Virus record (IMG/VR): IMGVR_UViG_3300029305_003442
From: a virus
Strand: one strand, 5' to 3'
DNA: 64,000 nt
Part shown: piece after piece, positions 14,218-40,692 of the stretch
Position numbering within the stretch: position 1 is the first letter of the stretch
Layout of the letters: the number at the start of each line of letters is the position of its first letter
Position numbers and translations under genes: made by a program
The notes under the pieces: model-generated
Databases searched by the model: none
The model's input: the letters and a program-made list of their open reading frames with translations, nothing else
Told to the model about the DNA's origin: nothing

Positions 14218-17200
14218 ATGGGAAACAATGCTGTTTTTCGTGTTGCTCGTGGATTAGATGAAAAAATAAATCAATTACCGTATGATGATGGTAAAGTTTA
14301 TTTTGCTATTGATACTAAAAAAATTTATTTAGATGCGAATGAACAAAGAACACCAATGGGTGGAAATACTGGTATTTATTATGGTAAAGCCGATTTTACT
14401 GGTGAAATTGGACCAACTTTTATCTTTAAATTTGAAGATATTGATGGTGATAATTTACCTAATATTAATGATTTAATTTTAAATAGCGATGGTAGTTTCT
14501 ATAAAGTTATATAGATTTTAAATGAAGATGGTGAAATCTTTACCGAAAAATTAACAATTGCTGGTTCTGGTGGAGGAGGAGCTAATCCAGATGAACCTAG
14601 AGGAGAAATTAGTGTTGATATAAAATTTGATTCTACTGTAATTGTTGGTGAAAAAATTTTATTAAAAATTAAATTATTAGCAACAGATGCAGAGGGCCAA
14701 AATACTGGTGATGGCCGATATGAAATTAAATTATAGAATATATTAAAAAAGAGCGGTACTTTAATTAATTCTGCAGGAGAAGATGAAGCTATTGAAAATT
14801 TAATTGATATTACTGATTTGTGTGTATTACCTGGAGATTATACTTTTAGAGTGAATTGCTATGCAGATACTGGTAATCTTGAACCTGAAGTAGTACCAAG
14901 AAACATTAAAATTAAAGTAGTTAATTTTACTACTACTTGGAATTATACAGATACTACTATTAATAGTGTTTATTCTGATTTTACTATGACTTGGAGTACT
15001 AATGTTCAAGATGATAGTTATAGAGCTTATATTGTAATTGATGATATTTATCCTTTTGATATTAAAGGAACTTCACTACATATTGCAAAAGAAAATTTAG
15101 CTGATTATGGTTTAAAACATGGCGCTCATAAAATTGAATTACAATCTTTCGCTAAATTTGGTAATAGTTTAACTGAAAAATCAAGTAATAAGATTATAAA
15201 AAATGTAATCTTTTATGATAATGATCCAAATATAACAAATTATATTATTGCTTGTGATTTCTTTGAAACTAATGTATAGCAATATAATACAATTCAATTA
15301 CCAGTAATGATTTATCATGCAAGTAATATAAATGGTACAGCAACAATTACATTTAAAACAAATAATAAAGTAACTGAATTAACAAATTGTAAAAATTTAA
15401 CTAAATATATTTTTACTTATACTCCAGATAAAGCAGGATTTATTCCATTACAATTTTTAAGTGGTGGAACGACATTAGATTTAAATTTAAATGTAGAAGC
15501 TTTAGATATTAATGTTCAAGAAGTTTCTGGTTATGAATTTAAATTTAAAGCAACAGATTTTGCTAATGATGAAGAAGTTAAACAATGGACTTGTAAGAAT
15601 AAGCAAATTGAATTTTCTGAAAATTTTGACTGGATTAATGGCGGTTTAAAAAATGGAGATAATGATATCGGACCTTATTTTAGAATACAAGCTGGACATT
15701 GGATGAAAATTCCTTATAAACTTTTTGAAGAAGATTTAAAAAATACTGGTGCTTGTTTTAAAATGGTTTTTAAAGCTTATAATTGTAGAGATTATGATGC
15801 TACATTTATTAATTGTTTATCAAATGATAAAGGATTGGAAATGAAAGCATAGGGTGCTAATATCATATTAAATTCTAAAAAATCATTAAATACTCGTTAT
15901 TGTGAAGATACATATATTGAATATGAATTTGATATATGCAAATTTAATGAATCTAATAGAAGTGACCAATATTATACAATTTGGTTAGATGGTATACCTG
16001 CCAATGTTGATAATATGGGTATTACAGATTCATTTTTACAAGCTAATGCGCAAGATTTAATTATTGGTTCAGAAGATTGTGATGTATTTATTTATTTAAT
16101 TAAATTTTATAAAAAACATTTAACATTTAATGAACATTTATAGAATTTTATTATTGATGTACCAAATGCTAATGAAATTTTATCAAGATATGTACGTAAT
16201 GATATAATTCTTAAAGATTCTTATGGTAATGAATATATATCTCCTGAATTATTAGCTGAAAAAAATCCAGAATGTAATGTCTATTTGCTTGAAGTGCCAT
16301 ACATTCCAACTTCCAAAGATGATGTAAGTATTCCTAATCCAGATGATCCAAATAATCCTAATAAAGAATGTTGTACTTTTTCTCATTTAAAAGGTAGTAA
16401 AAATCATTTACGTGATTATAGTGGTGTTAAAGTACGCGCGCAAGGTACATCTTCAATGGACTATGGCATAGCGGCTTATAATATGGATATTAAATTTCCA
16501 GAAAAATGGAGTATGGATGAAGAAGCAATTCCAGTAAATTATATGAATATGAAAGTTAATGTTGCTTCTTGTGAAGGAGCAAATAATGCTTTAAATCAAG
16601 AATGGTATAATAGATATTAGCCATATAAAACTCAAAAACGTTTAGCTAATAAAAATGCTCGTGATACAATGGAATTTAAAAATGGCGTTGTATTTATTAA
16701 AGATAATAATACAAGTACAAATAGTGCTCCAACAAATAATAATGCTTTTGTTGAAATTGAAGGATATGTAAATAAACCTTATCATCGTATGTATTCTATT
16801 TGTAATTTAGGTAATTCAAAAAAGAATATAGATGTATTCCATGGTCAAGGTAATTAGTATGAGTGCTGTGTTGAAGTAAATGATAATAATACTAGCGGAC
16901 AACGTATGGTTTCACTTAATGGTTTTTATGAAGCTAATAAAGACTTAGGTGTTGAAGAACATGAAGTAGAATTAAATTTAAGTGATGATTTATTTGATGA
17001 AAACGGTTTTGTTAAACCAGGAGTTGATTGGGGAAAAACCTATGATGCCCAACTTGAAGGCAATGAAAATTTTACTGAAGAATAGAGATGGATTGATAAT
17101 AAAATGCTATGGAATAATGCAATAATAAAAGAAGGTATTTATGGTTTTAGATATTGCATTGATAAAGATGATTTTATTGCATCTGAAGAATTTCCTACTT

Positions 17201-20200
17201 ATGATGATTATGAATAGGAAATTAGTAATAGATTTTTAAGATTAGTTAGATGGTTTGTAAAAAATAATCCTTCTCAAGCTACTAACGCTCCATTAGAAAA
17301 TCCAATTGAATTTCCAACTTATATAATTAAAGGTATTAAAGAAACCGCTTATGCTAACTATAATGCTACTGAAATATTAGCTGGTACAGAAGTTAAAGAA
17401 GGACTTACATTTACAGTAGATTCTTCTGCCTATAGAGTTGCAAAAATGCTTAGAGAGAGTGAAAATTATTTAATTTTAGACTCTATTTTCTATCATTATA
17501 TTTTTATTGAACGACACAGTATGTTAGATAATGTTGCTAAGAACACGTTCTGGAATACTGAAGATGGTATTCATTGGGAATTAACTAAAAACTATGATAA
17601 TGATACAGCGGATGGAATTAATAATAGTGGACATTTAGCACTTGATTATGGCGTTGAAATTATGGATAATACAACTGATGGAAAAGAAATATTTAATGCT
17701 AGACCTTCATCATGGTTACATTTCGCACACGGATGTTTATCATTAAGAGAAAAAATGTATTCTGCATTATTTAATACAAAGGATGATACTAATGCTTGGT
17801 CTGCTAATAAATACTTAGAATTATTTGAAAGTTGGCAAAATGCTATTCCAGAAATTTGTTGGATTCAAGATTTTTATAGAAAATATTTTAGACCTAATGA
17901 TATTTATGGTGATGCATCTTATTTAGCGCGTTTAGCGAGTGGTAAAAAAACACATCAAAGAAAATAGTATGAACTTTATCAAGAACAATATCTTGATTCT
18001 GAATATAAAACATGTGCTAGACGTGGTGAAGCTATTTCCTGGCGTTCTATGTAGCCAAGTGATCCTGAAATTATGATTGATAATAAATATGTTTTAGGAG
18101 CTACTGTAAAAATGTATGCTGATGGATATTTTGCTATGGCTCTTGCTAATGGAGCTGGTACAGAAGAATCTGTAAATATTCATATAAGAGGTAAAAAAGG
18201 TTAGTTAATTAATTTCTCAAAATCTTAGGAAACAAATTTTAATGATGCGACTTGTTATATATATGGTCCAAGTTTATATCAAGAATTTATTCATGCTGAA
18301 TCAATATATCCTAGTTATATTACAGCTACAAATGCAACTAAATTAAGAAAATTTAGTCTTGAACCAATGTATAATAGTTAGAAAATTATGCTTAAAACTA
18401 GCTTATCTTTTGGAGATAATTTAGAAGAATTAATTTTAAAAGATTGTTTAAGTATTCTTGATGAAACTAGTGGAAAACCAACCAGTATTGACTTAAATTT
18501 AAAGAATTGTGTACGCTTAAAAAAGATTGATACAACTAATAGTACTTTATTTGCAAGTTATGAAATTGCAGATGGTGCTCCATTAGAAGAATTTTATATT
18601 CATCAACCAACTGGTTTATATTTATAGAATTTAAGATATTTAAATAAAAATAAATTCAATATTGAAAATTATGATTCATTAACATCTATTTAGATTAATA
18701 ATATTGATTATAATGATATTAATAGTATTGATATTTTAAATAATGTTTATAGACATAATAATTCAATTATATATAATTTAGAAAATGTAAAATGGAAGTT
18801 TAATAATGAAGATAATATCACCGATACTAATATTCCACTATTGGATTATTTGTTAACTCAATCATTAGCAATTGCTGGCAAAACGAAAGCTTTATCTTTA
18901 ACAGGTTCAGCAATTATACCATATGAAGCATATGATGGAATTAACTTATTAAGTTTATATGAAAAATATGGATTAGATTCTGGTGAAAAAGATAATACTT
19001 ATCCAAATTTAATTTTAAATTTCCTTGATAATAATGAAAATTCTAGATTATATACTATCAATATTGAAAATGGTGATGGTTAGATTGTTTGGACAAGATA
19101 GGTAGATAATTTTAATACATTAACAAATGAGATTTTATCCAATAGTGCTTTGGGAGCTTTTGACGCAACTGCTGCAATTGCTAAATCTTATAGCAATGAA
19201 TTTGTTTATAATTTTGCCAATTCTTGGGAATATATAATTAATAATGAAATTAAACCTATAGAACCATTAGATGAATAGGGAATGTATTAGTATTTAGATA
19301 TGTCTAAATTATAGAATGTTAATGAATCTAATATTACTATTCGTCCAGTATATATAACAGATACTCGTTATTATACAATTCAAATATATGATGTGTGGGG
19401 AGAAAAAATTCATGAAGCAAAAGTTGAATATTTAGCTTCTTTTGATGAAGTGCGTCCTCCAGTTCTTCCATTAATGAATGATTCTAATTTGGAATTAGAA
19501 AAGACATATTATTTAAAAGGATATGGAACTGTTAGAACTGATAATAGTATCATTAATGAACAAGATTGGAAAGCCACAGCTGATTTAATTTTATATACAA
19601 AATTTGAAGAAAAAAATGTATATGATATTGATTATTCTTCTTATTTAGATATAGATACAACTGGTACTGTATTAAATGGTTTAAAGAAAAATAAAAATGA
19701 TGAATATATTTATTAGGGGCAGAAAATTGTAATTCCAAAGTCTATTCAAACGATAGCAACTAAGGCTTTTGGTTTTGAACAAAACGATAAAGCACAAAGT
19801 AGTAAAACTAATTTAACAAAAGTTTTTTTTGAAACAAATAGTAATTTAATGTATATTAATAAAGCTGCTTTTGGTTATTCTAACCTTGAATATTTTGAAT
19901 TTGTTAATTCTATTGAAAGAATTGGTGAACAAGCTTTTAGAGGATGTAATTTATAGGCTATTAATTATAATGGTATATTAAAATTACCAACTTCTTTAAA
20001 ACAAATTGGTTAGCATGCTTTTAATAGTTCTTTCGGTTCAATAACATAGAATGTAGAATTATTCGTGCAGATCCCATCAACTATTATAGAAATAGATAGT
20101 TATGGTTTAGCTCACTGGGGACCAATAAAAGCTGATATTGCTATTGGTTCTTCCAATAGTTTTTCTAATTTAAGTTTAGAAAAAACTCAAGGTGGAGTAC

Positions 20201-20370
20201 CAATTATAAGTAGTAACTATGGTAATGATAAAGATATTTGTAATATTTATTTTTATACTAAAAATTATAAAGATAATAGCATTATTAATGGTATTCTTAT
20301 TGGTGAATTTTTTGATGATAAAAATTTAAGTAGTAATTATAATATTACTGTTCATTATATTGATTCGTGA
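14218..20370 (+). CDS. Giant virion protein (2050 codons, about 25 in-frame TAG) with central CotH-like (atypical kinase fold) domain and C-terminal BspA-type leucine-rich repeats
   Basis: GAAAGGAG SD; ATG 14218. All ten track ORFs 14218-20370 are frame 1, and every inter-ORF gap was translated and contains only TAG; TGA 20368-20370. CotH-like motifs: VKVRAQGTSSMDYGIAAYNMDIKF and FIERHSMLDNVAKNTFWNTEDGIHWELTKNYDNDTADG. LRR_5-like repeats: KAAFGYSNLEYFEFVNSIERIGEQAFRGC...LKQIGQHAF. Confidence 0.6.
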
Positions 20371-20700: not shown

Positions 20701-22605
20701 ATGATTACAAAAGTAACGGAACAAAATTCTGTAAAATATCAAAAATTATTCAGAGAAGCTGAAGAATTATTAAAAAGTACTGGTACTGAAGATATTGTAG
20801 TTGGAGAAACAATTGACGATTTATATGAATATTTTATTGCTTTTCCTTCAATCTTAAATGCGGCCGCTATTAAAGATGCTTCTGATGATAATAAAACTGG
20901 TGATCCTGAATATTACCAAAAGTATTTTACTATATTACCTTTAGATGAACCAGTATTTGAAATTAATGCTGATACTCGTGCGATTACAATTCCACAGCAA
21001 TTTAAAAGTATTGGTGTAACTGGTGATAATATTGCGGAAATTGTTTTCTTTTCTATTGATAGATTCTTTGATGCTGTTGATTTTGGTGCTCCTGAAATTG
21101 AAGCTGTAATTGAATGGCATCGTACTACCGGAGATAATCAAGATACTTATGTTGATAAAGCTTATATAAAAGAATTAACATTAAAAGAAAATAAAGTTTT
21201 AATTGGATGGGTTATTGATGAACGCATTACTGAAGAGCCTGGTACAATTGAATTTGCTGTAAGATTGGTTATGAAAGACGAAAAAAATGAAATTATTTAT
21301 AGTTTTAGTACATCAGCAGCAAAAGTAAATATTAATAAAACACTTAATTTTTATCCAGATGCTACTGAAATTGATAATACGGCGATTGCGCAAGTTAAAG
21401 CTCGTATTTTAGCAACTAATTCGCCTGATGTATCAAATGAAAATTCTTTAAATGCTCCAGCATATAATATTATAGAAGACGATGGTGATGAAATATCTAC
21501 AAATATTGATTCTATGGTTGATGATGAAGGAAAACCATTAACATATTCTTATACTTCTACTAATGATTTTTATGCCGATTTTAATGATGAAGATAATGCT
21601 TTAGTAGTAAATGTTAAAGCTAGAAGTACTAATGGTAATGGAGATGAACGTCTTCTTTATCGTTGGTTTAAATGGAATGAAAATGATAAAAACTGGCAAG
21701 CTTATCCTATTGGAGCTGTTGAAGCAGTTGATGGAAATCAAACTATTATTGATTCTATTGGTAAATTTAAATGTGTAGCAATAGATAATGTTGGTATTCG
21801 TAGAGCGACAAAAGATAGCCAAATTCTTCATATTCTTGGTCCATAGAAACCAGAAGTTAAAACTGCTGATGAAGGAGTTTATACTTCTATAATTTTAACC
21901 AATGAAGCAGATGGTATGGAATTAAATGTAAAACCAGGTCATGAAAATGATGTATTTTATGTTGATAATTATGATATTAATAATAAAACAAAATTATCTT
22001 ATGAATGGAAAAAGAGCAATAATCTTAATGATACTATTAAGATTGATATTGAAGATGCTTATGAACAAAAATATCAAGCAAAAGAAGAGGGCTATTATTA
22101 TGGTTATGCTATAACTTAGCGTAATTTAAAAATTGAAACATCTGATGAAGCTAGTATATATCGTGTAACTAAGCCTTTAATTCAACCTACTTTATAGTAT
22201 ACTGTATTAGGATTATAGAATGGTACTAATGGTAAAATTGGAGAAACTATTGAAATTGATTTTAGCACTTATGATGATGAAGGCAATGTATTAACAACTT
22301 ATGCTTATGATACAATTGATTATTAGTGGTATCGTTCTATGAATCAAAATCAAGGTGATAGTAGTTATCAAAAAGTTGAAGATGAAGACTATAATCAAGG
22401 ACATCTTACAGCTACTGATAGAAAAATTTTATTTACACCAAAAACTCCAGCAGCTTATAGAATTAAATTATTGGTTAAACGTAATGGATAGAGTATTCCT
22501 GAAAAAGATTTTGATGAAAATGATTCATCCACTTGGCCAATGTTAAATCAATTATAGACCAATGGAACTTATGATGAATTAACTATTTCAATGAGCATAG
22601 ATTAA
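20701..22605 (+). CDS. Virion-associated protein (634 aa) with Ig-like C-terminal region
   Basis: ATG 20701; 381 codons TAG-free, then frame 1 continues through 8 TAG (track ORF 21916-22119 same frame) to TAA 22603-22605. Confidence 0.55.
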
Positions 22606-22627
22606 TCAATAAAGGAGGTTATAAGAT

Positions 22628-23242
22628 ATGATAACCAATCCGGTTGATTATTACAATAAAATATTATAGATAAAAGATTTAAATAAACCTCAATATGCGC
22701 TTTTGCTTCCAACAGATGAAACAATTTATGATATTGATTTATCTACAAGAGAAGTTAAAGCACCTAAATTTTTAAGTTTACACAAAGATCATTATGCGGA
22801 AACCATTTATTTTAAAGTTGATAGATTTTTTGATAATATGGATTTAGCAGATACAGTTTGTACTATTTAGTATGTAAATGATGGTGTAAAAAAACTTACA
22901 GGTGAAGCTGATGCGGGTCGCATTTATTTAGTACCATTTTTTGATATTTTTACATATCGTGATGACAATAAAATGCTTATTCCTTGGCAAATTAGTGGTT
23001 TAGTAGCTAGAGCTCCTGGTAATATAACCTTTTCATTTAGATTTTATAAATTAAATGAAACAGGAGATTTTATTTATTGTTTAAATACTTCTCCTGCTAC
23101 AAGTAAAATTCTTAATGGATTAGATTTAAAACTTCCAGAAAATGATGAAGGTTATATGGAAGCAGGAATTGTAGATGATATTTATCATTAGATAGATATT
23201 GTGAGTAAAGCTACTGATTTATATTGGATTGAAGTTGAATAA
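22628..23242 (+). CDS. Hypothetical protein (204 aa) sharing a DRFFD-containing N-terminal domain with the preceding gene (paralog)
   Basis: AAAGGAGG SD; ATG 22628; frame 2 with track ORF 22973-23191; TAA 23240-23242; AETIYFKVDRFFDNMDLADTV vs AEIVFFSIDRFFDAVDFGAPE in 20701 gene. Confidence 0.5.
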
Positions 23243-23246
23243 AAAT

Positions 23247-23275
23247 TTGACATAAATAAAAATTTATGTTATAAT
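23247..23275 (+). promoter_or_regulatory. Perfect consensus sigma-70/sigma-A promoter
   Basis: TTGACA (23247-23252) - exactly 17 nt - TATAAT (23270-23275), 35 nt upstream of ATG 23310. Confidence 0.6.
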
Positions 23276-23309
23276 AATATAAAAGAAAAGAAAGGTTAGG
23301 TATTTAATT

Positions 23310-23615
23310 ATGGCAACTACTTTAACAATTAATTATTCTGTAAATGGAGTAGAAAAGAATCTTATATTAACTGAAATTACTAGATGTTCTGAAGATTTTA
23401 AATCTGAATATGTTTCTTTAAATATTTCTTGTAATGATATTGTTGAAAATAGTATTTTAGGTGAATTAATGAATTCTATAATTTCTGATATCATTTTTAT
23501 AGAAGACTCTGAAACTACCACTTTTACTAATTATACTCGTCTTTATAATATTAATCGTTCTTATAAAGGTGAAGGTTCTTCTTTAACTTTTAATTTAAGA
23601 GAATATTTTAATTAA
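23310..23615 (+). CDS. Hypothetical protein (101 aa, no TAG), first gene after consensus promoter
   Basis: Track ORF; TAA stop. Confidence 0.5.
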   Translation: MATTLTINYSVNGVEKNLILTEITRCSEDFKSEYVSLNISCNDIVENSILGELMNSIISDIIFIEDSETTTFTNYTRLYNINRSYKGEGSSLTFNLREYFN

Positions 23616-23651
23616 TTTATTAAATTAAAATGAATAAAGGAGGAATAATTT

Positions 23652-24821
23652 ATGGCAGCTGATGATAAAATATTAGCAACGTAGATTAGTACAAATTCTT
23701 CTTCCTGGTATCAAAGATTAAGAGCTATTTAGGCAAATAATAAAACAGGTATAGGCGGGTCTGCTTTATAGCAGACCGCCGACCCTGGTATCACTTCAGG
23801 AACGAAGATGACAGCAACACATATTAATAATTTTATTAATGCTTTAACAGCTTTAAAATCAAATGTATTTTTAGCTTATGCGGATTGGACTAATTATACT
23901 CCTTCTACTGTTTCTAGTGGTGGAAAAGCTAATGCTTCTACTACATAGACTAAAATTAATAATATGTTAACATCACTAGAAAGTATATGTAGTAATTGTT
24001 AGACATATAGTACAAATAGTTATTCTAATACTTGTTCAAATAATGCTACAACTAGTTATTCAACCTATTCGGAAAGTATTGATAAATATAATTATTCTAA
24101 TACATGTAAAACTACTTATAATTCCACAGAATCTACAAACTCTACTTGGAGTGAAAGCTGTAAAACAACTTCTAATAGTACTAATAGCTATTGTTCTGAT
24201 GCTAATTGTAGCGCTTATAGCGAGAATGAAACTTGTGCAGAATTTTATGTTGGTAATAGCACTTATTCTACAGATAGCACTAGCTCAAATTCTACTTATG
24301 GAGTTGGAGATTCTACTTAGGCAACAGATGCTACTTCTGTTTGTGCTACTTTATCAACTTATAATGATGAAATATCTTATAGTACAGATTGTAGTGATGG
24401 TTGTTGGGATTGTACTTTTCATTCTTATTGTCCTGCAGCTGAAGTAGCTACTTATAGCGTCGGAGAGTGTTCAACTAATGCTACTAATTCTGAAAATTCA
24501 ACAGAAGGAGTTTGTAGCACTTGTAGTACTAATTCTACTGATTTTTATTGTAATGAAAACTCTTGTACTGAACATACAAATAGAGGTACATATTCAAATC
24601 ATTCACAATGTAGTACTTATGGAAAAAACAGTACATATAATGATACTTGTCAAACTTGTGAGACTGATTCAACCACATCAAATACAACTTATACTTAGTC
24701 AAATTCTACATATACTAACACTAATGATGGTTATAGTACATATTCAAAAAAAGCTACATATGGAACATATACTAATACAAGTGGTAATTCAACATATTAG
24801 ACTTATACGGTAAAAAATTAA
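23652..24821 (+). CDS. Cys/Ser/Thr/Asn/Tyr-rich low-complexity protein (389 aa, 22 Cys, 9 in-frame TAG); candidate substrate of adjacent radical-SAM enzymes
   Basis: AAAGGAGG SD; ATG 23652; frame 3 verified codon by codon to TAA 24819-24821 with only TAG interruptions. Track ORFs 24043-24447 and 24478-24813 are other-frame shadows of this low-complexity gene. Confidence 0.6.
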
Positions 24822-24851
24822 TTGAAATGAGATAAAGGAGAAAATATTTTA

Positions 24852-26210
24852 ATGTTACAAGATAGAGAAACAATTATTTTATATACTACAGCAGTATGTA
24901 ATTTAAATTGTACTTATTGTTTTATTGATAAAAATCCAAGTTTAAAAAAGATAGATCAATGGCTTGATGATAGTTTTTTAAAAACTCCAGATTATTATTT
25001 TGAATATGCAAAAAAAGCCGTTTTACAAGAAAAACTAAAAGAAGTATAGATTTGGGGTGGAGAACCTTTTTTGGGTATGCATAGAGCCTATGCAACAATA
25101 GATAAATTTATTAATTATTTTCCAAATTTAAAAAATTTTATGACTTCTACAAATTTTGTATCTCATTGTTTTTTTGAAGAATTTTATGGACTTCTTGATA
25201 TTTTTAGAAAGCATCCAAATAGAAATTTTACATATAGTTTATAGTTATCATTAGATGGTGTAAAGGAAATAAATGATATTAATAGAGGTAATGGAGTTAC
25301 TGATCGTTTTATTATTAATTTTGAAAAATTTGTTAAAGAATTACAAACTTTATTACCAAACAATTTAACATTAAAAATGCATTTAAAGCCCACTATTGAT
25401 ACAAATTCTTTGAAAAAATTATAGACTAAAGAACAAGTTTTTGAACAATTTATCTTTTTTGAAAGCTTCAATGAAGTATATTTGAAATATAATAAAAAAA
25501 ATAATTTACTATTTTCACTTCCAATTCCTAATACAGCTTGCCCATCTCCTCATACTCAAGAAGATGGAATAATGTTTGCAAATTATTGTAAAATAACAAG
25601 AGAGCTTGAAAAAGAAAATAAAAATAATAAAATTTTTAAATTTTATAATAATATTACAAGCTTTACTCCAAGAAGAAAAATTCAATATGACAAACTTTCA
25701 TTATCAGGATATTGTCAAGGTCATTGTGGTAATGGAAAAAGAGCTATTGGTCTTTTACCTAACAATATGGTTTCTTGTTGTCATAATGGTTTTGTTGATT
25801 TGCTAGCTGAATATAAAAAGAATGTATTAACAAATAGTGAACATATGGATAATGTTACTATTGAAAAAAGTTTATTTAAAAATAAACGTAATACTTTAAT
25901 TTTCCCTTATGATAGTAAAGAATTTGAAATGTATCAAAAACAATTAGAAGTTTTTTATCAAAATGATGATACTGCCAAAATTTCTAATTGTGCTTCTTTA
26001 ATTAAATTATTGGCTGATTTTGAACAAATTGATAAAAAATATCAAGATAAAAAAGAAGCTGTTAAAGGTGCTTATTTTATTTTTAATACTACATCATATT
26101 GTGTTAGAGATAATTTAGGTGTGACTGGAAGCATCTATATGTATCCTGTTGGTTTAATTAAATTATTGCTAAATGGAGCTAGAGAATATATTGAGGAAGG
26201 ATGTAATTAA
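24852..26210 (+). CDS. Radical SAM / SPASM-domain enzyme #1 (452 aa, 3 in-frame TAG)
   Basis: AAAGGAG SD; CNLNCTYC (CxxxCxxC) at residues 16-23; IWGGEPFL; SLDGVKEINDINRG (anSME-like). C-terminal Cys cluster CPSPH...CQGHCGNGKRAIGLLPNNMVSCCHNGF consistent with SPASM/twitch auxiliary cluster. Track ORFs 24852-25049 and 25482-26210 share frame 3. Confidence 0.75.
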
Positions 26211-27599
26211 ATGGCAAAGTGTTTAAATTTTTAGGAAGAAAAAGATGTTATTTTATGGTCATTAATTAATGATACATTTGGAAGACTTTTTTCTAAAGAA
26301 AAAAAAGAAGATATTGAACATGATATGGGGTTAGAAATTTATATAACCCCTGAATGTAATTAGAATTGTTCTTATTGTTATTTATGTAAAAATGGTGATG
26401 AACTTTATCCTAAAGAATTAAGAAATCCTACAATAATTTTAAATAATTTAAAAATTATGTTAGATTATTGTATTGATAATAATTGGAATCCTGGAAGATT
26501 TGATTTTTTTTCTGGAGAAATTTGGGATACTGATTTAGGTTATAATGTTTTAAGCATTACAGAAGAAGCAATAGAAAGAGGTTTTCACCCTAGACTAATT
26601 GTAATTCCATCAAATTTTAGTTTTATTTTAAATGAAGAAGCTAAAAATAGAGTTGAAAAATTTATGGAAAAATGTAGACAATTTAATATAAAGCCATGTT
26701 GGTCTTGTTCTAATGATGGTTTATTGTTAGATTTAGAGACAAGACCATTTAATTCAGATGAATTAAATGCAAAAAAAGATACTGAAGATTATTATAAAAA
26801 ATTATTTGAATTTTGTAAAAAATGGAATTTAGGTTTTCATCCAATGGTGGCAGCACACGGAATTGAAAAATGGTCAGAAAATTTTTTATGGTGGATGTCA
26901 GAATTAAAGAAATATAAATTTGAAAGAAATTCTTCAATAATGTTTTTAGAAGTTAGAAACGATGATTGGACAGATGATAAAATTTATCATTATTTAAAAT
27001 ATTTAAATACTAGTATTAATTATTTAAATGATGAATGTATTAATTTAAATACATTGTCTTTTGAAGATTATGTTAGAAAAACTAATAAAAATATTAAATA
27101 CAATTATACACCTGTTATTTTAGAAAAATCAAGTTTATAGCCTGGATGCACTATTCATAGATCTTTAGTTATTCGTTTAGGTGATTTAGCAATAGTTCCT
27201 TGTCATAGAACTTCTTATGAAGAATTTATTATAGGACATTTTAAAGTAGAGAATAATAAAATTATAGGAGTTACAGCTAAAAATATTCAAATAATGAATT
27301 AGGTATGGCTAAATAATATGAGTGGTAATGCTAAATGCACTAATTGTCCTTATAGCAATTACTGTATGAAAGGATGTTATGGTTCTTAGTTTGAATCTAC
27401 TGGAGAATTATTATATCCAATAGAATCAGTATGCAATTTATATAAAGCAAGAGCAATATTTATTTTTTATAAATATTTAAAAATGGGTATTTATAGAGAA
27501 GATAATCCCGAGGATAAAAAATATTTTGATTTTATTCAATCAATTAAAGATACGAAGGAGTTTAAAAAATGGTACAAAATTGTTTAGGAATTGATTTAA
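26211..27599 (+). CDS. Radical SAM / SPASM-domain enzyme #2 (462 aa, 4-5 in-frame TAG)
   Basis: ATG immediately after upstream TAA (translational coupling); ITPECN(Q)NCSYCY CxxxCxxC; C-terminal CTIHRSLVIRLGDLAIVPCH...AKCTNCPYSNYCMKGCYG SPASM-like Cys motifs; frame 3 with track ORF 26457-27140; TAA 27597-27599 if TAG 27585 is read through. Confidence 0.7.
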
Positions 27600-28168
27600 T
27601 TAATATTTATGAAAATCTTATCATAAATGGATTAAATGTAGAATTAGCAAAAGATATTGAAAAATATTTGATTTATTTTTTAGACAATAACACTAATGAA
27701 AATTAGTTATTATTATATAATTTATTAAATATTTTAAAACGTCAATAGAATACATCAATTCTTCTAAATTTTTTAATTCAAGAAGTTGAATTAAAGTTAT
27801 TAAGATTAAGTTTTTCTAATAATGATATAAAAAATAATAAAGATTGTTATAATATTTCATCTTGTCAAAAAAATGAATCTAAAGAAGAATTAAAGAAAAT
27901 TTTAAAAGTAACTAATAAAGATTTATTCCCTCCAAAAGGGACTACAACTCGTATTATTAATAAAAGAAAAGAAGAAAATGAAGAACATGAATATGTTTTA
28001 GAGATAGATGATCAAGGTAATGTTTTAGAAATTTTAGAACATTATATAACAAAAAATGATGCAGATTCTATTGATATATTAAATGATTCTCCTTTAAGCA
28101 AACTTAAAGAAAAATATCTTAAAGAAGATAAAGAAAATAATTCTTTAACAGAAAATGATTTAGAATAA
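27569..28168 (+). CDS. Hypothetical helical protein (199 aa, 2 TAG) within rSAM cassette
   Basis: AAGGAG SD 27555-27560; ATG 27569; frame 2 to TAA 28166-28168. Confidence 0.45.
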
Positions 28169-28193
28169 TATTAATAATTTAAATATTTCTAAA

Positions 28194-29270
28194 ATGGGAT
28201 TAGGAATTATGCGTCATAATTCTAATCAACAATATACAAAACAACTAATAGAATATGCTTTAAATAATAAAATTAATTATTTTGAAGCTTGTGATTTCTA
28301 TTTACAAAACGCTTGTGAAATACGTCTTGGGGATGCTTTAAAATAGCATCCTCGGACTTCATATAAATTATGTGATAAACTTCCATTATCTACAATTCCT
28401 TATTTTATTCAAAAAAATAAAAATTGGAATTTAAATGATTATTTTAATAATCAATTAGCAAAATGTAGAACTGATTATTTTGATGTTTATTTGATTTAGG
28501 CTTTAGATGAACGTAATTTTAATTACTTGGAAAAATATCAAATTATTGATTTCTTTTTAAAACAAAAAGAACAAGGAAAAATTAAATTATTGGGTTTTTC
28601 TTTTCATGGAAAAGTTGATATTTTAAAAAAATTATTAGAAATGAAATGTTGGGATATCGTTTAGTTTCAATTAAATTATTATGATTGGATTTTAGGTGAG
28701 GCGAAAGAATTATATTTTTTAACAAAAGAATATGATTTACCTATTATTACAATGGGACCAACTAAAGGCGGATTATTAATAAATAATTTACCTAAAAAAT
28801 CATTAGATAGATTAAAAGAAAACAATATTAATCCAGTCTATTTATGTTATTCTTTTTTAGAAACTTTAGACAACGTTAAAATTATTTTATCAGGAGCAGA
28901 AACTTATGAAATGATTAAAGATAATTTAAATTATTTTGAAAATGAATCTCATAAATTAACTCCAGAAGAGTGGTAGCATATTAAACAAAATATTCAAGAT
29001 TATCAAGAATAGAGTTTAATTCAATGTACGGGATGTCGTTATTGTGTTCAAAGATGTCCTGCTAATTTACCAATAGATAAAATTTTTAAAGAATATAATA
29101 ATTTTATTCAATCTAAAGATTTATAGTCAAGAGAATTTTTATATTAGAATATTCATAGTTCTAACTCTACACAGAATTGTAAAAATTGTGGTCAATGTGT
29201 AAAAATTTGTCCGCAACATTTAAATATTCCAGAAATTTTTCATAAACAAATTTTCCCAGTAAGGAGATGA
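28194..29270 (+). CDS. Aldo/keto-reductase-family oxidoreductase fused to C-terminal 2x[4Fe-4S] ferredoxin domain (358 aa, 8 TAG)
   Basis: ATG 28194 in frame 3 with track ORF 28752-28976; C-terminal CTGCRYCVQRCP and CKNCGQCVKICP ferredoxin motifs; TGA 29268-29270. Confidence 0.6.
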
Positions 29271-29274
29271 AAAA

Positions 29275-29685
29275 ATGGTAGTATCTGAATTAGTAGCTAC
29301 AATTTTTCAAGTTTGTATAATTCCATTATTGGGTGTATTAACTACTTTTTTTGTAAAATGGGTTAATTCCAAAAGCGCAGAAATCTCAAATAAAATTGAT
29401 GATGAAACATTAAATAAATATTTAAATATGCTTACTGAAACAATTAATACTTGCGTTTTAGCAACCAATTAGACATATGTTGAAAGTTTAAAACAACAAG
29501 GAAAGTTTGATGCGGAAGCGCAGAAAGAAGCATTTAATTTAACTTGTTCAGCAGTAATGGATATTTTAAGTGAGGACGCAAAAGAATATTTAACTTCTGC
29601 TATTGGAGATTTACAAATTTATATTACAAAGAAAATTGAAGCTGAAGTACATACAAATAAAGTTACACCTTGTGTAAATCAATAA
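29275..29685 (+). CDS. Putative holin (136 aa; N-terminal TM helix then amphipathic region), LL-H/phiLC3-holin-like
   Basis: AAGGAG SD; MVVSELVATIFQVCIIPLLGVLTTFFVKW TM segment; one in-frame TAG 29470-29472; TAA 29683-29685; last gene before terminator. Confidence 0.5.
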
Positions 29686-29695
29686 AATAAATATA

Positions 29696-29735
29696 GGGGA
29701 ACCTTTAGTATAATCTAAAGGTTCCCCTTATTTTT
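29696..29735. terminator. Bidirectional rho-independent terminator between convergent holin (+) and LytTR regulator (-) genes
   Basis: GGGGAACCTTT-agtataatct-AAAGGTTCCCC with T-runs on both sides (TTATTTTT on +; TATATTTATTTT on -). Confidence 0.6.
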
Positions 29736-29742
29736 GTTTATA

Positions 29743-30447
29743 TTAAATTCTATTATAAGTAAGCCAACGTTCACGAATTAAATCATGAGATTTTTTGGGA
29801 AAATATAATACTTCATCATTTTCAAAAGTTAAATGGTCAGTATCAATAATCTTAATTTCACTTAAATTAATCAATAAACTTGGTGCTAAAAATAAAAATT
29901 GCGGATGTTGGTTCAATGGAGTTATTGCTTTTTCAAAAGATGAGCGCAATGACTAACCATCAAACATTGTTCCATTTTTTAAATGATAACATAAACAACG
30001 TTTTACAATGTTAATATAATTAACTTGACTTGAGCGTATTCTTCTTTCACCTTCCGCAGTTTTAATTACCAAACTATCTTCTCTTATCTCTTTTTTAATT
30101 ATATTAAATAATTCAAACAATTCTTCTTTTTCTATTGGTTTTAAAAAATAATGATCTGCATGCACTTTATAAGCAGGATAAGCGAGAGAAGGATCTTCTC
30201 CAATAAAAATAAAATAACTATTTGGGTCTATTTTATCCATGCGATGACTTAACTCATATAGATTTTCTGATGAATCAGTGTCCATAATATAAACATCAAA
30301 ACTTGCAGGAACAACAAGTAAATCTTCTGATTTATCAAAAATTGATACTTTTGCCACAGACTTAGATTCTATTAAATATTCTTGAATCATCTCACGCAAT
30401 TCATTTAAATATGTTTTGTTGTCATCATAAATAGCAATAGAGAGCAT
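29743..30447 (-). CDS. LytTR-family two-component response regulator (REC + LytTR DNA-binding domain; AgrA/ComE-like), orphan; one in-frame TAG at 29953-29955
   Basis: Track ORFs 29953-30447 and 29743-29949 are the same frame separated by TAG+1 codon; REC features (IAIYDDN, VYIMDTD, YFLKP) and LytTR pattern (IKTAEGERRIRSSQVNYINIVKRCLCYHLKNGT...FLFLAPSLLINLSEI); AAGGAGG SD. Confidence 0.7.
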
Positions 30448-30482
30448 ATTTAAACTCCTCCTTTAAAATTTTTTACAATATT

Positions 30483-30511
30483 ATTATAACATAAATTTGT
30501 GAGAAAATCAA
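30483..30511 (-). promoter_or_regulatory. Consensus sigma-A promoter for LytTR regulator gene (member of repeated promoter family)
   Basis: Minus strand TTGATT-17-TATAAT (fwd aatcaa 30506-30511 ... attata 30483-30488). Confidence 0.5.
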
Positions 30512-30759
30512 ATTTTTTTGTGTAAAAAGTGTAAAAAATTTTAATTTTTGAGTATTTGATTTTTAAATTTACTTTTTGACATTCGGATTTTAAAAATAAA
30601 ATTGTAATTTTGAAAAATTGAATAAAAATTGTAAGGATGAAAAATCAGACAAAAAATGTGTGAGTGTTTCTTGTTTAAAAATCTGAAACAATTTTTATAT
30701 AGTAATGGAAGGGTAAGAGAAAAATAAAAAAAATGAATAAATACCTTGGAGGTGAATAT

Positions 30760-31236
30760 ATGAATTATCAATATAATCAGTAGCAGGTGAGTCCACCGCA
30801 GAATTAGACGACTCAGCAGTATTCTTACCAACGACAAGTTCCTTATACTTCTGGAACTTGGAATGCGAGAGTCAGACCGGTTTCTTCAATTGAAGAAGTA
30901 AGAGCATCTTCAATTGATTTTGATGGCTCAATTTTTTATTTCCCAGATGTTGCTAATAAAAAAATCTATACTAAATTTATTAATTTAGATGGCTCTGTGG
31001 CAATTAATGTATATGAGTTAAAAGAAATGCCAACAGGTTAGGCAGCAGATTCATCTTACATTACAAGAGAAGAATTTGAAAACGTAATTATGTAGTTAAA
31101 AATGATGTATAATAATTCTTCTGCGCCTTCTACTCCAATAGAAGAATAGCAATAGGTATAGTAGTAGATGAATAGTAATTAGTTTGCGGCACCACCCGCA
31201 CAATAGCAACATAATGTTTCGCCATTACAATTTTAA
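30760..31236 (+). CDS. Gln-rich protein (158 aa, 11 TAG codons clustered in poly-Q tracts)
   Basis: GGAGGTG SD; ATG 30760; frame 1 verified to TAA 31234-31236; GAA-TAG-CAA-TAG-GTA-TAG-TAG-TAG-ATG and CAA-TAG-CAA runs. Confidence 0.55.
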
Positions 31237-31532: not shown

Positions 31533-32327
31533 ATGTTTAATTCTAATGGTTACAGTTTGGCAGATATCGTTGCCGCAACAGGTGGCGGTAGAGAGAATTG
31601 CGGCGGCTTCGGCGGCTGGGGCGGAGATGGATGGTGGATTATCCTCTTATTCTTGCTCTGGGGTAACAACGGCTGGGGCGGCAATCAAGGTGGACGTGGA
31701 ACAGTTCGTGAAGAAATTGCTTATGGTTTTGATATGAACGGTTTAGAAAATAGCGTCCGTGGTGTTCAGCAAGGTATTTGTGATGGTTTCTATGCCATGA
31801 ATACTGGTATGTTAAATGGATTTAGTAACATTCAAAATACTCTATGTCAAGGTTTCTCTGGTATCAATCAAGGTACAGCTCAGTAGACATTTGATTTATC
31901 TACTCAGTTACATGGTATGGCAGCTGATAATGCGGCTTGTTGCTGCGAAACTCAGCGCGCTATTGAAAGAGGATTTGCTGAAACCAACTATAACATGGCA
32001 ACTCAAGCTTGCGATACTCGTAGAGCAATTGCTGATAGCACTCGTGATATTATTGACAGTAATAACGCAGGTGTTCGTTCTATTTTAGATTTCTTAACTC
32101 AGGATAAGATTGCTACTCTTACCGCAGAAAATCAGAGTCTAAAATTCGCAGCTTCTCAGGCAGCTCAGAACGCTTTCATTGCAGCTAATCAGGAAGCTCA
32201 AACCGCAGAACTTATTCGCAGACTTGATACCCCATGTCCTATTCCCGCTTATGTAGTTCCTAATCCTAATTGTTGCTATCCATCTTATGGATATGGGTAT
32301 GGCAACACTGGATGCTGCGGTGGTTAA
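31533..32327 (+). CDS. Gly/Trp-rich membrane protein with Cys-rich C-terminus (264 aa; GGFGGWGGDGWWIILLFLLWGNNGWGG ... CCYPSYGYGYGNTGCCGG); GC-rich codon usage
   Basis: AAAGGAGGG SD; track ORFs 31533-31886 and 31917-32327 same frame joined by one TAG. Confidence 0.55.
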
Positions 32328-36426: not shown

Positions 36427-36455
36427 ATTATATCATATTTTTTTATTTTTGTCAA
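36427..36455 (-). promoter_or_regulatory. Perfect consensus promoter TTGACA-17-TATAAT on minus strand (overlaps nrdG stop)
   Basis: fwd tgtcaa 36450-36455, attata 36427-36432. Confidence 0.55.
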
Positions 36456-36915
36456 GATAAATAATACGTTGATTGCGGCTTCCTCTCATAGGAAGTGTAA
36501 TGTCTCTTTCAGCTTCAATATAAGGTCCATCAATTAAACAAGTAATTAATTCTAAAATTTCTTTTATATTTGGATTATGAGGTAAATCATCGTAAGTATA
36601 CCCTGTCCATAAATAAATTTCTGTATCTGGTAATTTTTCTTTAACAGTTTTTATTACCAATAAAGTCAAAAAAGTATTTTCAGGACATAAAGGTTCTCCA
36701 CCCAAAATACTTAAAGAACGCTTAATACCATTAGCTTGAAGAGCTTCAATTATTTCATTAATTACATCAGTAGTAAATTCTAGTCCTCCGTCATAATCCC
36801 AAGTTTCGGGATTATGACAGCCAAGACAATGATGCGGACATCCTTGAGTATAGAAAGAAACTGATACACCAGTTGCCGCAGAAAAATCATTTTTAATTAA
36901 ACCTGCATATCGCAT
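36433..36915 (-). CDS. nrdG: Anaerobic ribonucleotide reductase activating protein (radical SAM)
   Basis: GCPHHCLGCHNPETW CxxxCxxC motif; 160 aa. Confidence 0.8.
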   Translation of the reverse strand: MRYAGLIKNDFSAATGVSVSFYTQGCPHHCLGCHNPETWDYDGGLEFTTDVINEIIEALQANGIKRSLSILGGEPLCPENTFLTLLVIKTVKEKLPDTEIYLWTGYTYDDLPHNPNIKEILELITCLIDGPYIEAERDITLPMRGSRNQRIIYLDKNKKI

Positions 36916-37544
36916 TATTCTTCCTCCTCTAAGTCTAAATCATGAACATCATCTGGATTAGCTACTTCGTAATAAAATATACATCTACAACTGGGATGAT
37001 ATGGTGGGAGATTAACATCTTCATCTGGCGGATATTCTCCGCCTTCACACATATCACATCCACTTTCAATTACTAATAAAGTAGCATTAATAGGTCTTTT
37101 ATTTTTCTTTACTGCATTTTCTACATTTTTAGTTTCTGTATTTAAAATTCTTTCAAATTTATAAACTAAATTATCTCTTATTTCTTTATAAGTTTTTTCT
37201 TTTAAAATATCTTGTCTTGTCTCTTCCCAAATTAAAGACAATCTATCTTGAATTGTTTTTCCATCTTCTTTATAAGTTAAATCAAAGATATTTTTGATAT
37301 TAAATTCTTCTACTTCTTCATATAATTTTTCTATATATTTACTTGTAATAAGATATGTTTCAGTTAATGATTCATAAAATAAATCTTCAATTTTTTTATA
37401 TGCTTTATCCCAAAGTTTAATATTAAAATTATTTGAATATTCTCTGACAGCTTTTAAAGATTTATTTATAATTTTTTCAAAATATTTATCTTTAGATTCG
37501 TCAATTAAATCTTCTAATTTAAGTATTTCTTTTCTGATACTCAT
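36915..37544 (-). CDS. Hypothetical protein (209 aa) inserted between nrdD and nrdG; C-terminal CxxC...HPSCRC zinc-binding motif reminiscent of Mu F/SPP1 gp7 C-terminus
   Basis: Track ORF; GCDMCEGGEYPPDEDVNLPPYHPSCRCIFY. Confidence 0.45.
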   Translation of the reverse strand: MSIRKEILKLEDLIDESKDKYFEKIINKSLKAVREYSNNFNIKLWDKAYKKIEDLFYESLTETYLITSKYIEKLYEEVEEFNIKNIFDLTYKEDGKTIQDRLSLIWEETRQDILKEKTYKEIRDNLVYKFERILNTETKNVENAVKKNKRPINATLLVIESGCDMCEGGEYPPDEDVNLPPYHPSCRCIFYYEVANPDDVHDLDLEEEE

Positions 37545-37549
37545 AACAA

Positions 37550-40466: not shown

Positions 40467-40692
40467 TTATGTCAATAGCCTCATCTTCATATTCATATTT
40501 TAATTGATTAGGTAATTCATTACGATAAAAAGTATATTTCCTTTTACAGGTAGGACAAAAATAAACATACTGTTCAGGATAAGTACATAAAACTTTACCA
40601 GTACTTTTTATTTCTTCATTACAATCTTCACAATAAAAGCTATCTATATAGATAGCTTTTACATATCGTCTTTTAATTTTCATCTTCTTCAA
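40453..40692 (-). CDS. Small zinc-ribbon protein (79 aa)
   Basis: CEDC...CPTC pairs. Confidence 0.4.
   Translation of the reverse strand: MKKMKIKRRYVKAIYIDSFYCEDCNEEIKSTGKVLCTYPEQYVYFCPTCKRKYTFYRNELPNQLKYEYEDEAIDINEEV

Follow-up and report, generated by a model that had tools for sequence, protein, structure and literature searches.

A hypervariable, cysteine-rich late protein of a TAG-recoded phage as the probable substrate of a radical-SAM enzyme cassette

The new analysis of IMG/VR record IMGVR_UViG_3300029305_003442, a viral stretch of 64,000 nucleotides referred to here as the window, indicates that the open reading frame (ORF) at 23652-24821 (+) is a real gene in which TAG is read as glutamine. 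Its product belongs to a protein family that combines a conserved N-terminal domain with a hypervariable tail, and it is encoded directly upstream of two radical S-adenosylmethionine (radical-SAM) enzymes, termed rSAM1 and rSAM2. The original prediction, made from the letters alone, had missed these downstream genes; with them, the gene becomes a probable enzyme substrate and more than a gene-calling hazard. Specifically, we hold with moderate confidence that the ORF encodes the substrate of a phage radical-SAM maturation cassette, modified late in infection, and we favour a virion-directed product.

The coding frame is settled by codon usage and homology together. The original prediction had placed the gene in the third forward frame, with a Shine-Dalgarno-preceded ATG at 23652 and interruptions by TAG only, and coordinates, codon scores and homologues all bear this out. 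The Shine-Dalgarno sequence (AAAGGAGGAA, 23636-23645 (+), with its GGAGG core at 23639-23643) lies 8 nt 5' of the ATG, and the gene of 389 amino acids (aa) carries eight in-frame TAG codons (nos. 11, 27, 40, 99, 117, 223, 349 and 383), the only stop codons in frame before the TAA at 24819-24821. With six long late genes from the same window as the codon-usage reference, the substrate frame scores +0.40 bits per codon, compared with -0.93 and -2.20 for the other two forward frames, and every reverse frame comes out negative. TAA and TGA stops number one in the substrate frame versus 6 and 52 in the other forward frames. Homology picks the same frame, as all 34 homologues from a word-index search and all 140 clusters from a HMMER search match it. 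The evidence that would have spoken for another frame, codon periodicity or homology, thereby favours this one on both counts.

Two Leu/Ile-rich ORFs in the +1 frame (24043-24447, 134 aa, and 24478-24813, 111 aa, both on the plus strand) had been dismissed as artefacts, and the score of their frame (-0.93 bits per codon) and the homologues agree with that verdict. They are the longest ORFs of the region under the standard code, and a standard-code gene caller would indeed prefer them. Their composition follows from the real codons, which mostly carry A, T or G at the first position, C, A or G at the second and T at the third (65% T). In practice, standard-code annotation of recoded phages thus destroys the true gene and invents two plausible hydrophobic proteins.

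The reading of TAG as glutamine (genetic code 15) in the late genes is well supported, because the TAG codons of both downstream enzymes align with invariant or near-invariant glutamines of homologues from standard-code genomes. The window belongs to an AT-rich phage (28% guanine plus cytosine, GC). When TAG is treated as sense, the summed length of ORFs of at least 100 aa rises from 47 to 69 kb, and the plus strand from 1 to 33.8 kb becomes an unbroken array of large tail- and tail-fibre-like genes. TAG density ranges from 0.3 to 6.6 per 100 codons in the plus-strand late genes and is zero in most minus-strand replication genes. ARAGORN found no tRNA, and hence no suppressor tRNA(CUA), in the 64-kb window; the same phage is present in public assemblies (Logan/ENA) on contigs of up to 71 kb, and a tRNA(CUA) may lie outside the window.

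The protein has two unequal parts. The N-domain (aa 1-115, 23652-23996 (+)) comprises three predicted helices and ends in the junction motif LESIC-S-N. The tail, or putative core (aa 116-389, 23997-24818 (+)), consists to 70% of Ser, Thr, Asn, Tyr and Cys, contains 20 Cys and 10 NST motifs and ends in ..STYQTYTVKN, the C-terminal motif of the family. Residues 1-110, with 38% of these five amino acids, are ordinary, as had been proposed; the description of the following stretch of about 280 residues as made almost entirely of them slightly overstates the 70% found for residues 111-389 (279 aa). All 21 Cys of the protein fall within residues 113-336, at irregular spacings (3, 12, 24, 18, 11, 5 and so on). 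The protein contains no transmembrane or hydrophobic segment, as predicted (maximal 19-residue Kyte-Doolittle mean 0.78), and a check that the prediction had suggested finds no signal-peptide-like N-terminus. For the homologue P0001 (48% identical), AlphaFold2 modelled residues 4-117 confidently as three helices (predicted local distance difference test, pLDDT, 74-95); a Foldseek search with this model against PDB and BFVD returned nothing significant.

The claim that the protein lacks repeats of fixed length holds for the window protein, whose gene shows no meaningful DNA tandem repeat in Tandem Repeats Finder, and fails for its relatives, which carry 5-, 9- and 10-residue repeats. The window tail itself has a weak 3-residue periodicity and enriched short motifs: NST occurs 10 times versus 1.4 expected and NSTY 5 times versus 0.2, values reached in 0 of 1000 shuffles. 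N-x-S/T sequons, of which the whole protein has 23, are mildly enriched in the tail (19 versus 13.3 expected).

This architecture recurs across a large family. The best of the 34 word-index homologues is 42% identical over its full length, and the exhaustive HMMER search, run over 1.84 billion representatives, recovered its 140 clusters at E <= 1e-3, 22 of them at E <= 1e-30. The members, found by a homology search of the kind that the original prediction had recommended for the N-terminus, share a common plan, in which a conserved helical N-domain of about 115 residues is followed by an unalignable hypervariable tail and, at the C-terminus, by a short conserved motif. The N-domain consensus reads ..QISTxSSWYQRLRxIQ.. 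TxDPxITxG.. INxFIxALxxLxSNxFLxYAxW.. INNMLTSLExIC-x-N; its closing junction motif C-x-N is found in 117 of 150 family members, and the C-terminal motif takes one of two forms, ..(Y/F)x(T/V)V(T/K) or ..(V/I)D(I/V)xNSNxS... Identity to the window protein is 46-70% for the N-domain in syntenic loci and 34% in the distant locus L005; for the tail it is about 30-43%, which largely reflects shared composition. We propose that the N-domain is a handle, either for leader-like recognition or for anchoring.

The tails are chemically diverse. Next to the S/T/N/Y-with-Cys type of the window, the family includes tails rich in D/E/C, Cys-free tails rich in Y/D/E/G, tails rich in F/S/C and strictly periodic tails, the latter with about 45 copies of (G-T-x-S-N) in Oscillospiraceae prophages and about 85 copies of (x-S-N-G-x) in one IMG/VR contig. 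Further repeats comprise NGAHG pentads, TCGDxSTxx nonamers and C.TNSTYSDT decamers, and the 9- and 10-residue repeats are phased by Cys. NSTY occurs 37 times across 14 tails versus 1.2 expected (roughly 30-fold); NST recurs in the window clade and NGT in Oscillospiraceae tails. These recurrent short motifs make the tails resemble the multi-site cores of RiPPs, peptides that are ribosomally synthesised and then modified after translation. The pentapeptide-array tails with 45-85 copies of (G-T-x-S-N) or (x-S-N-G-x) (L015 753-1892, L022 5489-6574, L025 4348-5580 and L036 3880-5565) have no hydrophobic position, unlike classical A(D/N)LXX pentapeptide-repeat proteins, and in their high-GC versions the other frames yield Ala/Pro/Thr-rich shadow ORFs, a parallel to the Leu/Ile shadows in the window.

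Linkage to the enzymes ties this family to a candidate function. In all seven homologue contexts the substrate gene is followed, in the same order and orientation, by rSAM1, rSAM2 and a small protein, with or without an aldo/keto reductase (AKR). To avoid circularity, the reverse search was started from rSAM2. It recovered 673 homologues, all metagenomic, on contigs of up to 278 kb, and enzyme-anchored loci were collected from GTDB genomes and IMG/VR (26 loci, scanned with an enzyme alignment) and from contig look-ups (three loci); single-sequence pattern scans of IMG/VR had given no match, and the enzyme alignment was needed. In every enzyme-anchored locus rSAM1 lies directly 5' of rSAM2, and 24 of the 25 loci whose upstream sequence is usable have an N-domain protein next to the pair (hidden Markov model, HMM, E-values 1e-33 to 7e-4), the sole exception being L016, which is disrupted upstream. 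The linkage persists in standard-code prophages (Roseburia and Oscillospiraceae metagenome-assembled genomes, MAGs), in phage contigs of 160-280 kb, across GC contents of 21-57% and through changes in gene order (in L012 and L014 the substrate follows the enzymes), with identities to the window enzymes of 46-70% for rSAM1 and 40-56% for rSAM2. Given this near-constant neighbouring pair, the family tail is probably cross-linked or otherwise chemically modified after translation.

The enzymes themselves belong to the peptide- and protein-modifying radical-SAM/SPASM group, within which sequence and model comparisons place them as two new families. Both carry the CX3CX2C motif, at C16/C20/C23 in rSAM1 (invariant in 8 homologues) and at C49/C53/C56 in rSAM2 (invariant in 48). 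rSAM1 matches the Pfam family Radical_SAM (E = 4e-8) and has four further family-invariant Cys (246, 292, 310 and 417), a twitch-like set that is enough for one auxiliary cluster; its weak NCBIfam matches are to the RiPP maturases DynA, TIGR04463, YhhB and PapB. In rSAM2 the SPASM seven-Cys motif is complete (C313, C331, C376, C379, C385, C389 and C408), its pattern C-x17-C ... CxxCx5Cx3C ... C is invariant across 48 sequences and constitutes the motif for two auxiliary [4Fe-4S] clusters, the NCBIfam SPASM model TIGR04085 is matched with 31.4 bits (cut-off 27), and the C-terminus matches PapB and the SCIFF maturase. The NCBIfam matches of both enzymes are to peptide maturases only, above cut-off only for the SPASM domain model. 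In a sequence search of the PDB, rSAM1 retrieved ChlB (E = 7e-3) and rSAM2 retrieved CteB and SkfB, and for a full-length AlphaFold2 model of an rSAM2 homologue (pLDDT 93) the best PDB folds were anSMEcpe, CteB, ChlB, SuiB and TigE. The N-terminal extension of the rSAM2 model is helical and spans only about 45 residues, and the cluster motif of rSAM1 begins at residue 16.

In the window, the genes form what appears to be a single promoter-to-terminator unit in the order orf101, substrate, rSAM1, rSAM2, small protein, AKR-ferredoxin and holin, as they are bracketed by a promoter consensus and a terminator hairpin. The promoter-like site (23247-23275 (+)) is a consensus match only, a sigma-70 consensus with extended -10 (TTGACA, 17 nt, TG-TATAAT; 12/12); it is the sole 12/12 match within 22500-30800 and sits just 5' of orf101 and the substrate gene. 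The small gene orf101 (23310-23615 (+)) precedes the substrate in all syntenic loci (100-126 aa there), contains no TAG codon and matches no Pfam, PHROG or NCBIfam family; all other genes of the unit contain TAG codons, as do other late genes. rSAM1 (24852-26210 (+), 452 aa) carries CNLNCTYC at residues 16-23 and rSAM2 (26211-27599 (+), 462 aa) carries CNQNCSYC at residues 49-56. The start of the small accessory protein (27569-28168 (+), 199 aa) overlaps the end of rSAM2; this protein has a helical N-terminal half and a conserved 'E(L/V)xIDxxGN(V/I)xxE' motif, keeps its position in homologue loci and is detected by HMM in 19 of 40 sources. It has no Pfam, NCBIfam or PHROG match, and a 5.8-billion-protein index returned only the protein itself. 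Next comes an aldo/keto reductase fused to a 2x[4Fe-4S] ferredoxin domain (28155-29270 (+), 371 aa; Pfam Aldo_ket_red E = 7.5e-25, Fer4_9 E = 1e-10), which co-occurs in L005, L007, L009, L011, L013 and L018. The holin (29275-29685 (+), 136 aa, phrog_13712, E = 1e-31) is the last gene of the unit and is followed by a strong bidirectional intrinsic-terminator-like hairpin (29695-29728; 14-bp stem with 7 GC pairs and a T-run on both strands). Here and in distant loci, the cassette lies between tail or tail-fibre genes and lysis genes.

Gene content also suggests the conditions under which the enzymes would work. The phage encodes the anaerobic ribonucleotide reductase NrdD (763 aa, E = 3e-140) with its radical-SAM activase NrdG (160 aa; both within 36433-39841 (-)), alongside a split DnaE-type polymerase, LigA and DnaB, and it therefore carries three radical-SAM enzymes (rSAM1, rSAM2 and NrdG). 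NrdD and NrdG imply that the phage replicates in an anaerobe.

In the simplest model, the cassette is transcribed late as what appears to be a single unit, from orf101 through the holin. The N-domain would serve as a constant handle that is recognised by the enzymes or by an accessory protein, much like a long RiPP leader, and the hypervariable tail would act as a core that both enzymes alter at many sites through hydrogen abstraction by the 5'-deoxyadenosyl radical. Electrons for the Fe-S clusters may be fed in by the AKR-ferredoxin in the anaerobic host cytoplasm. For the window member, with its 20 tail Cys, thioether stapling is the most likely chemistry; it would join Cys sulfur to carbon (sacti- or ranthi-type) at multiple nearby Ser, Thr, Asn, Asp or Tyr residues. 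Such thioethers would act like disulfides and yet withstand the reducing, protease-rich conditions of the gut. As some relatives are Cys-free, at least one of the enzymes must catalyse a Cys-independent reaction, for which C-C or C-O cross-links, epimerisation and Cbeta oxidation are candidates. The absence of a signal peptide implies that the product is either assembled into the virion or released by lysis. Of these two, a stapled, hypervariable element on the virion surface or associated with the fibres, which contacts the host, is favoured because the cassette ends the tail-fibre module and because the tail evolves fast.

Several observations weigh against this reading. The chemistry is wholly something that we infer, and both enzymes stay below the cut-offs of all characterised maturase families (PapB NF047865, 36.8 versus 340 bits; SCIFF TIGR03974, 32.5 versus 425 bits). 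In fold, rSAM2 is closest to anSME, an oxidising and not a cross-linking enzyme. Tails with few Cys belong to or sit with the same enzyme system, including four without any (P0179, P0223, P0238 and P0262) and the L013 and L037 proteins with one or two, and thioether formation can accordingly not be the universal reaction. No RiPP recognition element (RRE) or PqqD-like domain is detected in any cassette protein by Pfam or NCBIfam, and no leader peptidase or exporter is encoded between promoter and terminator. Neither structure nor profile comparisons connect the N-domain significantly with a tail-fibre or leader family, and the tail of P0001 has no structure in the AlphaFold2 model (pLDDT about 35). 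Finally, the association with the virion is drawn from gene position and evolutionary pattern, and the destination of the product is thereby the weakest point of the reading.

Among the alternatives, the one that holds up best accepts the enzymes as maturases of the tail and dispenses with cross-links. The enzymes might oxidise Ser, Thr or Cys at Cbeta to aldehydes or ketones in the manner of anSME, or convert L- to D-residues as in proteusins and epipeptides, thereby producing a protease-resistant or reactive polymer. This alternative is possible, if on the unlikely side. The fold of rSAM2 speaks for it, as its best match, anSMEcpe, acts on whole proteins without an RRE, and so do the tails, which are dominated by Ser and Thr and are in some cases Cys-free; the long N-domain is, moreover, similar in size to the NHLP leaders of proteusins. 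However, the anSME motif (C/S)x(P/A)xR is absent from the window protein, the NCBIfam matches include thioether and cyclophane maturases and no anSME family, and the Cys-phased repeats of many members suggest that Cys matters.

A second alternative keeps the maturation and changes the destination. Here, the product would be a large RiPP-like effector, such as a bacteriocin, a signal or an anti-competitor factor, that is freed when holin and endolysin lyse the cell and is perhaps trimmed at C-x-N. This is a serious rival to virion assembly, even though we judge it unlikely. A conserved leader with a hypervariable core is the hallmark of RiPP precursor families, the short family members (89 and 126 aa in L038, 151 aa in L037) look like ordinary precursors, the junction motif is conserved, the gene shares its transcription unit with the holin, and some copies of the cassette lie in temperate prophages, for which a moron-type toxin would be plausible. 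Yet the unit lacks genes for a protease, a transporter or immunity, and known RiPP cores do not resemble tails that measure 100-450 aa and carry a conserved C-terminal motif. The cassette is also surrounded by tail-fibre genes in phages that differ greatly from one another, and it is hard to see what a virulent TAG-recoded phage would gain from a toxin released at lysis.

The tail might also be left unmodified, as a disordered Ser/Thr/Asn-rich linker, or be glycosylated at its N-x-S/T sequons as a mucin-like fibre, with the radical-SAM genes serving some other purpose. The disorder of the modelled tail, the 23 sequons and the recurrence of NST in the window clade and of NGT in Oscillospiraceae are in line with this idea, but without a functional tie it is hard to explain why the enzymes accompany the family in 24 of 25 loci across genetic codes, GC contents of 21-57% and genome sizes. 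Pfam and NCBIfam reveal no glycosyltransferase in the unit, and it is the exact motifs NST and NSTY that are strongly enriched, with the N-x-S/T pattern only mildly so; this alternative is therefore improbable. Least probable by far is a diversity-generating retroelement as a source of tail hypervariability beyond ordinary divergence, through adenine mutagenesis of AAY codons: most tail residues can be reached from such codons (N, S, T, Y, C, D, G, A; third position 65% T), but C at the first position and T at the second are almost lacking, a pattern not expected from unbiased adenine mutagenesis, and the lack of both a template repeat of the ORF (self-BLAST) and a reverse-transcriptase-like ORF in the 64-kb window largely refutes it there.

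Radical maturation of a tail destined for the virion thus remains the favoured reading, and comparison with known systems indicates which of its parts are familiar. In PapA/PapB, SCIFF-CteB and SkfA/SkfB, a radical-SAM/SPASM enzyme is likewise encoded beside a Cys-containing precursor whose N-terminal part is constant and whose multi-site core varies, and the SPASM region of rSAM2 aligns with PapB, the SCIFF maturase and CteB. Freyrasin contains six CxxxD units, which the repeated short Cys modules of the family recall. The differences from ranthi- and sactipeptide systems are nonetheless substantial: the scores lie far below the cut-offs, two different radical-SAM enzymes are always paired, there is no RRE, protease or exporter, the cores measure 100-450 aa instead of 10-50 aa and are in some cases Cys-free, and the genes are phage-borne and located in the tail and lysis region. 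The small subunit QhpC of quinohemoprotein amine dehydrogenase provides a precedent for a protein that is thioether-stapled by a radical-SAM/SPASM enzyme, QhpD, and kept in a larger assembly. Both window enzymes match the QhpD family TIGR03906 weakly (marginal E-values of 1e-3 to 6e-3), and QhpC differs from the window protein in being small, not hypervariable and part of an enzyme.

With anSMEcpe and AtsB, the cassette would share action on full-length proteins, and it shares two auxiliary clusters and the lack of an RRE; in structure, the rSAM2 model is matched best by anSMEcpe (4k37, E = 1.6e-8, TM-score 0.51/0.63). As an anSME-type substrate, the window protein was rejected, as the motif (C/S)-x-(P/A)-x-R is absent at all three Arg, there is no sulfatase gene and no family is matched at the sequence level.

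In the Nif11/NHLP leader families (prochlorosins and proteusins), a long conserved folded leader of 70-100 aa precedes cores that differ wholly between paralogues and species. The window family shows the same leader/core pattern but has no sequence or profile similarity to these leaders, and it differs in its far longer cores and in its conserved C-terminal motif. A similar balance applies to phage receptor-binding proteins and tail fibres. Like them, the window gene lies at the tail-fibre module's distal end, is expressed late and encodes a conserved N-terminus with a fast-evolving remainder; there is no homology or fold match to fibre domains (Pfam, PHROG, Foldseek against PDB and BFVD), the position in the tail module is what supports membership, and the window protein would further stand apart by its low-complexity, predicted disordered tail and its apparent dependence on dedicated radical enzymes.

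A further comparison concerns the CXXX-repeat targets, which are defined by bioinformatics only (TIGR04115 maturase, PF27846) and which likewise are low-complexity Cys-rich proteins paired with radical-SAM maturases. In L005 and L011, CXXX-repeat proteins are neighbours of the same enzymes or of related ones, and in one jumbo-phage locus the same enzyme pair comes after such a protein. The window protein was rejected as a member of this group, as it shows no CXXX periodicity and no Pfam match to PF27846 even at E <= 1, hhalign does not relate its N-domain to the N-terminus of the L005 CXXX protein (probability 0.1), and rSAM1 scores 24.4 bits against the TIGR04115 cut-off of 350. On the two phage contigs concerned (188 and 278 kb), extra radical-SAM enzymes and CXXX-repeat Cys-rich proteins of 243-256 aa (e.g. 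CKSTCTNTCIGTCKNTC...) lie beside rSAM1 and rSAM2 (L005 6353-9255 and L011 2499-11554), with four radical-SAM genes within 9 kb in L011. Several maturation systems of this kind appear to operate side by side in some jumbo phages.

What is already known, then, is the logic of a radical-SAM enzyme that acts on a leader-and-core precursor. What is new is that the enzymes are obligatorily paired, that the hypervariable cores are the size of proteins, that the setting is the late-gene and tail region of a phage, and that a reductase accompanies the pair. No Pfam, NCBIfam or PHROG family covers the substrate or its N-domain (10 diverse members tried). Among GenBank and INPHARED phages, nothing matched the 20-30 kb region at the DNA level, and tblastn found neither the substrate nor rSAM2 nor the extra N-domain of P0215. 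In the literature on phage radical-SAM/SPASM enzymes, thioethers, RiPPs, CXXX repeats, stop-codon recoding and jumbo phages, no description of such a system was found; a radical-SAM maturase is mentioned in a single phage paper, which only lists a gene in a cyanophage.

These findings raise appealing possibilities. Radical-SAM/SPASM maturases, known from small bacterial natural products, appear here as a conserved and widespread phage cassette (673 enzyme homologues). In its boldest form, which we advance tentatively and regard as doubtful, the idea is that phages of gut anaerobes build part of their virion by RiPP-type radical chemistry, in which the enzyme pair and the phage reductase covalently staple a hypervariable, low-complexity polypeptide that is mounted via its N-domain on the tail or the surface of the virion. 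For a virion-associated element that interacts with the host speak fibre genes as neighbours in distant phages, late expression that depends on TAG, the missing export signal and the pattern of a conserved N-terminus and a fast-evolving C-terminus. If the idea is true, the product would bind a receptor or matrix, evolve rapidly and withstand proteases and reduction; it would be the first case of radical-SAM cross-linking in the maturation of a virion component, and RiPP-like cores of such great size (100-450 aa) would form a new class. As part of the virion, it would add covalent radical stapling to the means by which viruses harden and diversify host recognition, in anoxic surroundings rich in proteases, where disulfides are unavailable. 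Additionally, the family constitutes a natural library in which one handle carries hundreds of unrelated repeat chemistries (NSTY, GTxSN, NGAHG, TCGDxSTxx, F/S/C-rich, D/E/Y-rich), which makes it attractive for the discovery of new radical-SAM reactions and for peptide engineering.

Some loci depart from the common gene set. In L019 (3493-6265, a Bacilli MAG) and L020 (3313-5057, a Muribaculaceae-binned contig), the enzyme pair is followed by two or three paralogous genes of about 290-325 aa, which stand in place of the small protein and the AKR and may represent a different accessory set; L020 has two rSAM1/rSAM2 pairs.

Elsewhere in the window, three genes upstream of the cassette, a late protein of 2050 aa (14218-20370 (+)) carries 25 TAG codons. 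Its counterparts in syntenic loci measure 2125-2288 aa and match Pfam LRR_5, which identifies it, at the level of sequence, as a giant leucine-rich-repeat tail or fibre protein. Downstream of the cassette, the 167-aa ORF at 30733-31236 (+) has the highest TAG density of the window (11 TAG in 167 codons, 6.6%) and a Gln/Tyr/Pro-rich N-terminus. It directly follows a divergent gene of 234 aa (29743-30447 (-)), whose L009 homologue has a weak response-regulator match. Another odd late protein (31533-32327 (+), 264 aa) has a Gly/Trp-rich low-complexity N-terminus around a hydrophobic stretch (GGFGGWGGDGWWIILLFLLWGNNGWGGNQGG). In the replication region, the DnaE-type DNA polymerase III alpha is divided between two ORFs (40673-45733 (-)). 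The PHP domain and the beginning of the NTPase domain are encoded by 44309-45733, and the remainder of the NTPase domain, the finger and the HHH domain by 40673-42985. The gap of about 1.3 kb between the halves contains a 260-aa ORF (43303-44085 (-)) whose N-terminus (YIYLTTNNINGMKYIGKH) resembles a GIY-YIG homing endonuclease, and the gap is probably an intron or another mobile insertion.

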